Below are positions 14,761 through 23,352 of a stretch of DNA of 64,000 bases, in pieces. The stretch is from positions 14,193 through 78,192 of the forward strand of contig CALGLP010000018.1 in assembly GCA_937930175.1 (NCBI GenBank), in the 5' to 3' direction. This stretch comes from an uncultured bacterium (lineage in GTDB: Bacteria; Omnitrophota; Gorgyraeia; Zapsychrales; Aceulaceae). Positions within the stretch are counted from its first letter, which is position 1; every line of letters starts with the position of its first letter. The translations under genes and the position numbers were made by a program. The notes below the pieces were generated by a model. That model worked only from the letters and a program-made list of their open reading frames with translations, did not search any database and was not told the origin of the DNA.

Positions 14761-15123
14761 ATGAACGTCGCTGTCGTTGGAGCCTCCGATAAGACTGATC
14801 GCTATTCTTATCAGGCGTTTAAATTGCTTCAAGAAAAAGGCCACCGCGTCTTTGGCGTTCATCCGCGGATTAAAAATATTGATGGTCAGCGTATTTATTC
14901 TTCGCTTGAGGCGATCACGGAACCTATTGATGTCATTACTTTGTATGTTTCTTCAGATGTTTCTACAAAAATCGCTTTAGCCATTTTGGCTAAATCCCCA
15001 AAGAAGATTATCTTTAATCCAGGAACTGAAAACCTTGTGCTTGAGCGCTTAGGTCATGATAAGGGCATTGATGTCATTCGCGCTTGTACACTAGTTCTCT
15101 TGAAGACAGGACAATTTTCATAG
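14761..15123 (+). CDS. CoA-binding domain protein (YccU-like)
   Basis: MNVAVVGASDKTDRYSYQAFKLL..G..V..V.P N-terminal Rossmann-like CoA-binding signature; about 120 aa. Confidence 0.6.
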   Translation: MNVAVVGASDKTDRYSYQAFKLLQEKGHRVFGVHPRIKNIDGQRIYSSLEAITEPIDVITLYVSSDVSTKIALAILAKSPKKIIFNPGTENLVLERLGHDKGIDVIRACTLVLLKTGQFS

Positions 15124-15648: not shown

Positions 15649-16071
15649 ATGGATGCGTATTCATGGGCCATTTTAACTGCCTGTATTTGGGGTGTTGTGC
15701 CGATTTTAGAAAAATTAGGATTGGCGCAGACCGATCCTATTGCCGGAGTCTTTTATCGATGCCTAGGGATTATCGCCGGGTTTGTCATTTTTGGATTTTT
15801 TATTTTTAAACCCGCGGATATTCGTACCGTTGATTTGCGCTCCATTCTTTTTTTAGTGACGGCAGGTTTCTTGGCGAGCTTTCTCGCGCAGCTAACGTTT
15901 TATCAAGGACTCAAGCTTGGGGAAGTTTCTAAGATTGTGCTTATATCCGCAAGCTATCCTTTCATTACCTTTATTATCGGTGTTATCCTTTTTAAAGAAA
16001 ATCTTTCGTTGATAAAATGTCTCGGCGTTTTTTCTGTTATAGCTGGCATTTGGGCCATTAAGGCCGGGTAA
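15649..16071 (+). CDS. EamA-like small membrane transporter (DMT superfamily)
   Basis: 140 aa with 4 predicted TM helices and a single EamA-type repeat. Confidence 0.5.
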   Translation: MDAYSWAILTACIWGVVPILEKLGLAQTDPIAGVFYRCLGIIAGFVIFGFFIFKPADIRTVDLRSILFLVTAGFLASFLAQLTFYQGLKLGEVSKIVLISASYPFITFIIGVILFKENLSLIKCLGVFSVIAGIWAIKAG

Positions 16072-21723: not shown

Positions 21724-21789
21724 GCATTGAAACCCTATTGCCTTGTGATAAAATAAAAATTAATTTAGGTTTGAAGAAATGAAATTTTT

Positions 21790-22188
21790 ATGAAGAAATC
21801 ACAGTATTTACTTTTAATCATAATCACCTGTGTCTTAGCGTTATTTCCGAGCCAATGCTTTGCCAACGCCCTTACCATTACCAATTTTGGCCCTTCGTCG
21901 GTTGACACCACCAATCGCACCATGACCTTTACCTTTGATATTGCCTGGGACAATAGCTGGAAGGATGCGACCAATTATGATGCAGTGTGGATTTTTATGA
22001 AACGAAAGAATACCTCTACAGGCGTTTGGTCCCATGCTACCATGGCTGAAAGCGGGACAAACCCATCAGGCTTTAGCGCACCCACTGATAGCGAGATCAT
22101 TGTTCCAACGGATCTCAAAGGCTTTTTCTTCCAGCGCACAGATACAGGGGCGGATGATGTGTCGTTTGAGGGTGTTCAATTTGTCTAG
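21790..22188 (+). CDS. secreted N-terminal segment of an FGE-domain protein (ends at in-frame TAG 22186-22188)
   Basis: Signal peptide MKKSQYLLLIIITCVLALFPSQCFA. The same frame continues after a single TAG into the FGE domain. Confidence 0.5.
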   Translation: MKKSQYLLLIIITCVLALFPSQCFANALTITNFGPSSVDTTNRTMTFTFDIAWDNSWKDATNYDAVWIFMKRKNTSTGVWSHATMAESGTNPSGFSAPTDSEIIVPTDLKGFFFQRTDTGADDVSFEGVQFV

Positions 22189-22263
22189 GATTATGGGGCT
22201 GATGGCTTTTCAGATACTCAGGCCAACTCCACAACATCAACGTTCAAATTGTTTGGCACAGAG

Positions 22264-23352
22264 ATGGTGTACATTCCAACTGGGAGTTTTTATGTTGGTT
22301 CTGGCGGCACAGAAACTGGTAGCTTTACTGATGGATCATGGTCCTCTGGTGCCACCATTCCTTTGTTGATCACGTCTGAAGCCGAGTTAACAGTAGCGCA
22401 AAGCGCTGGAAACCTTTGGTACACTGCGGCAGGCAACTCCGGCGACCAGACAGGCCCTATTCCTGCGGCATTTCCCAAAGGCTATAGTGCTTTTTATCTG
22501 ATGAAATACGAGATCACTCAAGGTCAATATCGAGATTTTTTAAACACCCTTACCTATGACCAGCAAGAAACAAGAACTGCCAATGCTCCAAGCTCTGCTG
22601 CTAGAACAAATGCATTACCTGGCGCGAGAAATGGAATAGATATACAAACTTCCGGTACGGATAATACAACCCCTGCTGTTTATGCATGTAATTTAGATAA
22701 TGATACGAATTATAATGAAGTAACTGATGGCCAGTGCATTGCCTGTAACAATTTGGCTTGGGATGATCTCGCGGCCTATCTTGATTGGAGCGGTTTGCGG
22801 CCTATGACCGAGCTAGAGTTTGTAAAAGCATGCCGAGGCCCGTTAACACCTGTTGCTGATGAATATGCTTGGGGCAACGCGACTCCTGCGGATGCTGCGT
22901 ATACTCTGGCAAATTCTGGCGCGGTAAATGAAAATACTTCCGCAAATTATAAAACTGATGGTAAGGGTAATTGCTTGTATACAACGACGGAAAATGATTT
23001 TAATGGGCCTTGCCGTGTTGGGATGTTCGCGGGACATGCAAGCAATAACGGCCGTGTTACAGCGGGTTCTGGCTATTATGGCAACATGGAATTGAGCGGT
23101 AATCTTTACGAAAGGCCTGTTACCGTCGGTAATTCGACAGGCAGAGCTTTTACAGGTGTTCATGGCAACGGGGCATTAGACGCAACAGGTGATGCGGATG
23201 CCTCAAATTGGCCAGTAGGCACTGGGTATTATGGTGGCAATTATAACAGTTCTGCAGCGTACACGAAAGTTTCCAACCGCGCTTACGCGTCGGTTATTGT
23301 CGGCGCTCGCTATGGCAGTGACGGTGGCCGTGGAGCCAGAACAGCGCCGTAG
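22264..23352 (+). CDS. formylglycine-generating-enzyme (SUMF1/FGE-sulfatase) domain protein, C-terminal segment
   Basis: YLMKYEITQGQYRDFL and MVYIPTGSFYVGS are characteristic of PF03781 (compare MGKYEVTxxQY, VxIPxGxFxMGS). G/N/T-rich. In frame with 21790-22188 across one stop codon. Start codon uncertain (ATG 22264 or TTG 22249). Confidence 0.6.
   Translation: MVYIPTGSFYVGSGGTETGSFTDGSWSSGATIPLLITSEAELTVAQSAGNLWYTAAGNSGDQTGPIPAAFPKGYSAFYLMKYEITQGQYRDFLNTLTYDQQETRTANAPSSAARTNALPGARNGIDIQTSGTDNTTPAVYACNLDNDTNYNEVTDGQCIACNNLAWDDLAAYLDWSGLRPMTELEFVKACRGPLTPVADEYAWGNATPADAAYTLANSGAVNENTSANYKTDGKGNCLYTTTENDFNGPCRVGMFAGHASNNGRVTAGSGYYGNMELSGNLYERPVTVGNSTGRAFTGVHGNGALDATGDADASNWPVGTGYYGGNYNSSAAYTKVSNRAYASVIVGARYGSDGGRGARTAP

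Follow-up and report, generated by a model that had tools for sequence, protein, structure and literature searches.

A TGG-to-TAG nonsense mutation divides a secreted FGE-fold gene of an uncultured Omnitrophota bacterium, a probable young pseudogene

Within a 64,000-nucleotide stretch of contig CALGLP010000018.1 from an uncultured Omnitrophota bacterium (assembly GCA_937930175.1; the whole stretch is hereafter called the window), two open reading frames (ORFs) that together encode one secreted two-domain protein are separated by a single in-frame TAG at 22186-22188 on the forward strand. The downstream domain has the fold of formylglycine-generating enzyme (FGE, or SUMF1). Homologs are intact, the ancestral codon is TGG, and the TAG recurs in independently assembled data. 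We consider it very probable that one gene has been inactivated by a TGG to TAG point mutation, and that the locus is a real and quite ordinary young pseudogene.

Results and Discussion

The two reading frames belong to one gene

A 132-codon ORF starts at ATG 21790 and stops at the TAG; beyond it, from 22189, no further stop interrupts the frame before a second TAG at 23350-23352. Examination of the sequence thus bears out the initial annotation, which had described two ORFs of one frame parted only by this codon, and the two motifs quoted there, YLMKYEITQGQY and MVYIPTGSFYVGS, are both present in the downstream part. It had also proposed that reading through would yield one secreted protein of 521 aa; the single secreted product stands, with a length of 520 aa plus the stop position. 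Pfam family FGE-sulfatase (PF03781) matches aa 233-389 of this read-through product (E 8e-12). In the ORF listing, the first start codon after the stop is TTG 22249 (367 aa), and public gene calls give a 132-aa "hypothetical" protein followed by a 362-aa "FGE-sulfatase" protein starting at ATG 22264.

Coincidence of frame is not in itself evidence for a broken gene, since pairs of this sort are common in so compact a window: in ten cases two ORFs of at least 100 aa each share a frame across a single stop, and the one traced, at 15121, proved to be a stop dividing unrelated CoA-binding and ACT genes. Position 22186 stands out because both halves are collinear with one protein family and the stop falls on a conserved tryptophan. 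The earlier argument that the downstream part has no Shine-Dalgarno (SD) sequence of its own carries no information, as of 17 called starts nearby some 6 at most have an SD-like motif, and the start at 21790 has none.

Searching approximately 5.8 billion protein clusters yielded more than 3,900 relatives. Nearly all of the top 120 consist of one ORF of 505-560 aa that covers 95-100% of the read-through product; identity to the family is 46-73% over 95-100% of the length. When 25 and 98 sequences were aligned, the TAG fell in both cases on the nearly invariant Trp of the motif xWDYGxDG, a column with Trp in at least 90% of the 98. The gene for one relative, P0002, from another metagenome-assembled genome (MAG; GCA_036722365.1), reads TGG where the window has TAG, and it does so within a block that is 95.5% identical between the two. 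The lesion is therefore a TGG to TAG change, a G to A transition at 22187. These data support the view that the two ORFs were one gene, and the sense codon anticipated in orthologs exists, though it is TGG and not one of the guessed TAC, TAT or CAG. Of the three options raised by the initial annotation, a recent nonsense pseudogene is the one favored by the homologs, the ancestral codon and the assemblies described below. The window copy has the signal peptide, the N-domain motifs WxNSW, DAAWVF and WDYG, the FGE-fold domain and the C-terminal GGRGVRxAP of the family, and departs from it in not being one uninterrupted ORF; it is a disrupted family member. A locus now called as two proteins should accordingly be flagged as one pseudogene.

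The TAG is reproducible and TAG is a normal terminator

Four separate ENA assemblies yielded contigs carrying the same TAG. Those from ERZ724083 and ERZ724084 (L001 and L006/L007) include sequences 100% identical to the window (L001 and L006). The 10.6-kb contig from ERZ724082 (L005) differs at 4 single nucleotide polymorphisms (SNPs), all at 15662-15703, and the 922-bp contig from ERZ724086 (L014) is 99.0% identical with 9 SNPs. Because L005 and L014 differ from the window elsewhere, they represent independently derived consensus sequences. Contigs of three further runs match the 3' part exactly and end short of the TAG site. This allele is genuine and, it appears, has reached fixation in the Omnitrophota population.

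Stop codons of the 58 long ORFs in the window are TAA (38), TGA (11) and TAG (9), so TAG serves as an ordinary terminator there. TAG closes the present gene at the conserved family C-terminus (...GGRGARTAP), as it does the DedA/VTT gene upstream; the ortholog of the latter in a syntenic Omnitrophota MAG (L011) aligns to residue 198 of 199. No second in-frame TAG was seen within a homology-supported gene of the window. The sole tRNA in the window is Lys-CTT, and the window contains no tRNA-CUA.

The gene otherwise resembles selected coding sequence

Apart from the TAG, the gene is without lesions. Its N-terminal block compared with the P0002 gene gives dS 0.215, dN 0.012 and omega 0.055, and its C-terminal part compared with the gene for P0001, the closest full-length relative, gives omega 0.115. 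The window protein retains 106 of 114 columns conserved in at least 90% of the family and violates 8 (family median 3, maximum 14); intact P0002 also violates 8 of the 114, and several violations look shared between the two. In a relative-rate test against P0001 with ten outgroups, unique changes downstream of the stop numbered 16-26 versus 17-26 (all p>0.28), thus with no acceleration of the window lineage. Since the gene otherwise looks like selected coding sequence, the lesion is young relative to the history of the gene. It is not brand new, as the TAG is common to the window and L014 haplotypes, and a three-way comparison is tree-like, ((window, L014), L002), where L002 is the P0002 locus, with the TAG on the stem.

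Predicted consequence of the mutation

Protein architecture was assessed on an AlphaFold 2 (AF2) model of intact P0002, the N-domain of which is approximately 98% identical to that of the window (predicted local distance difference test, pLDDT, 92; predicted template modeling score, pTM, 0.91). The leader is a lone helix (residues 2-21) followed by a low-confidence segment (22-27); in the family alignment it is hydrophobic and precedes a conserved A-N-N/A motif. An all-beta N-domain (strands 31-135, pLDDT >90) leads by a connecting strand (153-164) into a large C-domain that is tightly packed against it. The lost Trp ends strand 122-135, the final long strand of the N-domain. As this Trp closes strand 122-135 and strand 153-164 joins the domains, truncation removes structural elements.

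With the mutation at Trp133, translation from ATG 21790 is expected to end after 132 residues. At most, the signal peptide and a beta-sandwich devoid of its closing Trp and of the inter-domain strand would be exported. The FGE-fold domain (aa 158-520) would either go untranslated or be re-initiated at ATG 22264, and the re-initiated domain would have no signal peptide, hence would reside in the wrong compartment. By either route the normal secreted two-domain protein would be lost. The loss is probably tolerated because the family is multi-copy, fast-turning-over, secreted and non-catalytic.

Alternative explanations

Three alternatives to a young pseudogene concern the stop itself or the gene structure. 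That TGG is the true codon and TAG a sequencing or assembly artefact is very improbable. Coverage of individual assemblies is low (2-7x), and the spanning contigs are all derived from consecutive ENA analyses that probably form one study, but four data sets assembled separately, one of them a variant haplotype, show the TAG, which rejects the assembly error that had been offered as an option. In addition, the site lies outside any homopolymer or repeat, and a TGG version of this gene was not found among approximately 15 billion public proteins, where the best full-length matches are 72% and 61% identical. Scanned against JGI metagenomes, a 29-mer bearing R at the mutated base gave 0 matches for either allele. 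Even less credible is that TAG is a sense codon in this organism, whether by reassignment, pyrrolysine or systematic suppression. Its only support is a TAG where an amino acid is expected, against which stand the 9 of 58 long ORFs ended by TAG at positions consistent with homolog C-termini, among them this gene and its upstream neighbor, the lack of any other in-frame TAG in a homology-supported window gene, and Lys-CTT as the only tRNA there. The ancestral residue is moreover Trp, which is not known as a target of TAG reassignment. Equally negligible is a natural two-gene arrangement, with a small secreted protein encoded first and a cytoplasmic FGE-domain protein, beginning at 22264, after it. 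Public gene callers do annotate the locus in this way (132 aa plus 362 aa), yet the 75 nt from the TAG to ATG 22264 encode conserved family sequence in frame (DYGADG...STFKLFGTE), and callers choose this ATG because an internal conserved Met, Met159 of the EMVY[VI]P motif, sits there. The two-gene organization with a start at 22264, named earlier as a refuting observation, was found in none of approximately 100 family genes examined at the DNA level in a JGI metagenome survey of 80 further loci; homologs are single ORFs.

The remaining alternative, that the gene is still used through low-level UAG read-through or as separate products (the N-terminal fragment and a domain from 22264), is unlikely but deserves more weight than the others. 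Several points favor it and count against a dead gene. Two haplotypes with 1% divergence share the TAG, and the 8 in-gene substitutions after the TAG between the window and L014 comprise 6 synonymous and 2 non-synonymous changes, a bias (P = 0.0024 for two or fewer non-synonymous changes under neutrality) that looks like continued purifying selection. Neither a further lesion nor rate acceleration is seen, ATG 22264 lies exactly at the start of the FGE-fold domain, and a promoter-like site is retained. We discount the selection signal because it comes from one 922-bp contig of approximately 2x coverage, because 6 of the L014 SNPs equal the allele of the P0002 gene, and because the numbers are small; the SNPs could represent gene-conversion import from a functional paralog, or assembler bubble-popping between similar sequences. 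Furthermore, no homolog is organized as two genes, a separate C-terminal product would be without the signal peptide that every intact member has, and the AF2 model packs the domains rigidly with a connecting strand. Amber read-through, the third option of the initial annotation, is biochemically possible, but it has no specific support here, where TAG is a normal and frequent terminator. An ordinary nonsense pseudogene also agrees with what is seen in bacterial multigene families: a single G to A at a Trp codon in an otherwise conserved ORF, and many paralogs, often in tandem, such that loss of one copy is likely tolerated. Nothing essential sets the locus apart from such cases; the synonymous-biased shared allele and the occurrence of two independently lesioned near relatives (see below) are unusual.

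An FGE fold without the catalytic cysteines

Similarity of the C-domain to FGE, SUMF1 and to EgtB and OvsA is clear at the level of fold. Foldseek matched it to FGE, SUMF2, EgtB and OvsA with probability 1.0 at 12-18% identity (TM score 0.5-0.59, target-normalized), and a profile search of PDB sequences gave FGE/SUMF1/EgtB matches confined to core motifs (E ~2e-6). Besides PF03781, shared motifs are MVxIPxGxF, Y..KYEVT, W.DA.AY..W.G.RLPTE.E[WF]E.A.RG and RGG.W. The active-site cysteines of FGE (human C336 and C341) lie between the RGGS[WY] and R..AR motifs and bind Cu(I). Placement of the catalytic segment followed the human FGE sequence together with a published account (PMC12421860). Among 98 members, no conserved Cys occurs in this segment; 14 of the 98 have a single scattered Cys and the window protein has none. 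Absence of the catalytic pair indicates that the family is not a formylglycine-generating enzyme. Thus, the label "FGE/SUMF1" given earlier is right for the fold and wrong for the catalytic residues, and the PGAP name of the family, "SUMF1/EgtB/PvdO family nonheme iron enzyme", is misleading for a large family that lacks them. Large insertions, the added signal peptide and the N-terminal beta-sandwich further separate this family from FGE and EgtB. EgtB, OvoA and OvsA carry an N-terminal DinB-like domain with a three-His iron site fused to the FGE-like domain. The N-domain here is, in contrast, all-beta, has no DinB Pfam match and found only marginal cohesin/adhesin/CBM-like (carbohydrate-binding module) folds in Foldseek, and only three His columns of the family are at least 50% conserved. 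No sulfatase was noted among the neighboring genes listed in the next section.

Closer in character are PorK, GldK and GldJ of the T9SS (type IX secretion system), described as a "repurposed FGE fold" without the two catalytic cysteines that serves as a docking scaffold (PMC12421860). Like them, the present family is exported, FGE-like in fold, Cys-less and interrupted by inserted segments. Foldseek gave a weaker PorK match (9myj_B, E 7e-4), and the NCBIfam GldK/PorK model scored 16-19 bits, far below the TIGR03525 equivalog cutoff of 350 bits. Differences are a signal peptidase I-type leader instead of a lipoprotein signal, a different N-terminal domain and the absence of adjacent porL/M/N-like genes in the window. 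No T9SS is known from Omnitrophota. By analogy, we infer that the family may act as an exported binding or scaffold protein.

Genomic context and mosaicism

A scan of a genome collection with the neighboring NAD kinase retrieved three syntenic Omnitrophota MAGs (L011, L012 and L013), in which the flanking genes are 60-88% identical to those of the window and keep their order: MetH, DUF4440, QueH, SpoU and DedA on one side, and HAD, NAD kinase, MutY and SurE on the other. The slot between DedA/SpoU and HAD is occupied in all three (L011 4092-5756, L013 366-2117, L012 2-226) by a family member on the opposite strand with 37-50% identity; the genes in L011 (554 aa) and L013 (approximately 580 aa) are intact, with signal peptide and Trp. 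We rejected an invertible element. With no inverted repeats flanking the slot in the window, and with occupants as divergent as 37-50% identity, replacement of the occupant and not a simple flip seems to have taken place.

Mosaicism is also evident within the gene. Outside the nearly identical block, the signal peptide and the remainder of the gene are approximately 75% identical to the P0002 gene or less (pS 0.75, dN 0.43), synonymous sites in the signal peptide and FGE-fold domain being saturated, with breakpoints at the signal-peptide cleavage region and the conserved GSFY motif. The P0002 gene lies in a different genomic context, next to DUF1844 and DHquinase II genes, and the FGE-fold domain of the window is closest to that of P0001 (72%). 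Tandem arrays of 2-4 adjacent family copies are frequent in the JGI metagenome loci, one of which (L055) has three complete copies plus part of a fourth.

Interruptions in related genes

Two near relatives are also interrupted. In the gene for P0001, which is 72% identical to the window protein (GCA_028693815.1, L003 9787-10004; the same in Logan SRR22315505, L004), the frame of the signal peptide MFFKKFLNLTIFLFAFLFLFPPP does not match that of the mature domain. The two meet at a C9 tract, 9845-9853 of L003, and C10 (or C7) would give a single ORF; the gene may be a pseudogene or subject to slipped-strand phase variation, or the homopolymer may be miscalled. The gene for P0004 (ENA ERZ27315921, k141_91399; L015 320-322) has TGA at the nearly invariant Trp67, NYDSA-stop-IFMKYY versus DAAWVFVKY in the family, an independent TGG to TGA lesion in a gene whose own terminator is TAA. 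Recoding of TGA as Trp is formally possible there, the contig being 1.8 kb long with a sole in-frame TGA and all other Trp codons TGG. Across the approximately 100 genes of the JGI survey, by comparison, we found one true in-frame stop (TAA, L054 1246-1248, RNGIDI-stop-TPG) and 0 frameshifts. Other "lesions" flagged among the 80 loci proved to be tandem paralogs, alignments extending upstream of the start, or an insertion of approximately 70 aa. Enrichment of lesions in near relatives over the wider family is nominal (Fisher p 0.005-0.011), the test being post hoc on tiny numbers and the wider sample selected for good tblastn matches. Among all codons, only those for Trp can be turned into stops by a G to A transition at either of two positions. 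Given this property and the Trp-rich nature of the family, nonsense lesions are of the expected kind.

Three independent lesions among the nearest relatives, the window gene included, versus approximately 1 in 100 in the wider family, replacement of the slot occupant and exchange of the N-domain could together mean that a variable secreted or surface family is repeatedly, and perhaps under selection, switched off in Omnitrophota, a reading we regard as unlikely. Were it true, the synonymous bias after the TAG would mean that the silent copy is kept as a recombination template or is expressed at a low level. Should the recurrent lesions, the cassette replacement and the mosaic structure be biologically real, the family could, speculatively, be put forward as a variable surface component of Omnitrophota, a phylum in which host-dependent nanobacteria have been proposed to occur. 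Literature searches combining Omnitrophota with formylglycine or pseudogene, and searches with the run and assembly accessions, found nothing relevant.

Features of the locus and minor observations

Coordinates of the gene parts and of related loci are collected in Table 1.

Table 1. Features of the interrupted gene, its surroundings and related loci (window positions unless a locus is named)
Feature	Position	Strand	Basis or remark
Sigma-70-like promoter candidate, TTGAAA-16-TAAAAT with TG	21727..21754	+	Consensus match 10/12; such matches in this region are not enriched over shuffled sequence
Start codon and signal peptide, aa 1-25, MKKSQYLLLIIITCVLALFPSQCFA then NALTI	21790..21864	+	Family alignment; cleavage site inferred without a dedicated predictor
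N-terminal beta-sandwich domain, aa 26-135, cut two codons short of its end	21865..22194	+	AF2 model of P0002
Mosaic block shared with the P0002 gene (L002 10072-10511)	21856..22294	+	440 nt, 95.5% identity
In-frame TAG at the nearly invariant Trp133 codon, G to A at 22187	22186..22188	+	
Internal ATG, Met159 of the conserved EMVY[VI]P motif, possible re-initiation site	22264..22266	+	Family alignment
FGE-fold (C-type-lectin-like) domain with insertions, aa 158-520, ending in the family motif GGRG[VA]RTAP	22261..23349	+	Pfam, PDB profile, Foldseek
Genuine gene terminator, also TAG, at the conserved family C-terminus	23350..23352	+	Alignment
Perfect 13-bp inverted repeat GGGCGCAAGTGCG/CGCACTTGCGCCC, 2-nt loop	23376..23403	.	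Between the gene and the HAD hydrolase gene
Tandem-array loci	L029, L034, L044, L048, L050, L055, L060, L067, L074, L079, L094, L095		
N-domain insertion of ~70 aa	L017 1-330, L054 200-760, L063 250-830, L092 1990-2560		

The hairpin formed by the inverted repeat is terminator-like, but it has no T-run and is not a canonical intrinsic terminator. The four SNPs of the ERZ724082 contig (15662, 15664, 15684 and 15703) fall within 42 nt near the start of a gene called at 15697, and may mark a local hypervariable patch or an assembly difference. In the ERZ724083 contig, the last 47 nt of NODE_133751 (L001 1090-1136) are unlike the window and translate to ...IGRASCRERV; this apparent chimeric contig end explains an odd 294-aa cluster representative, P0003. 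The insertion of approximately 70 aa (...TGVSSSGTTVTVSSTANLRVGMP...TVSAAPTTAL...) is situated in the N-domain between DAAWVFVK and W.HA and looks like a small domain.

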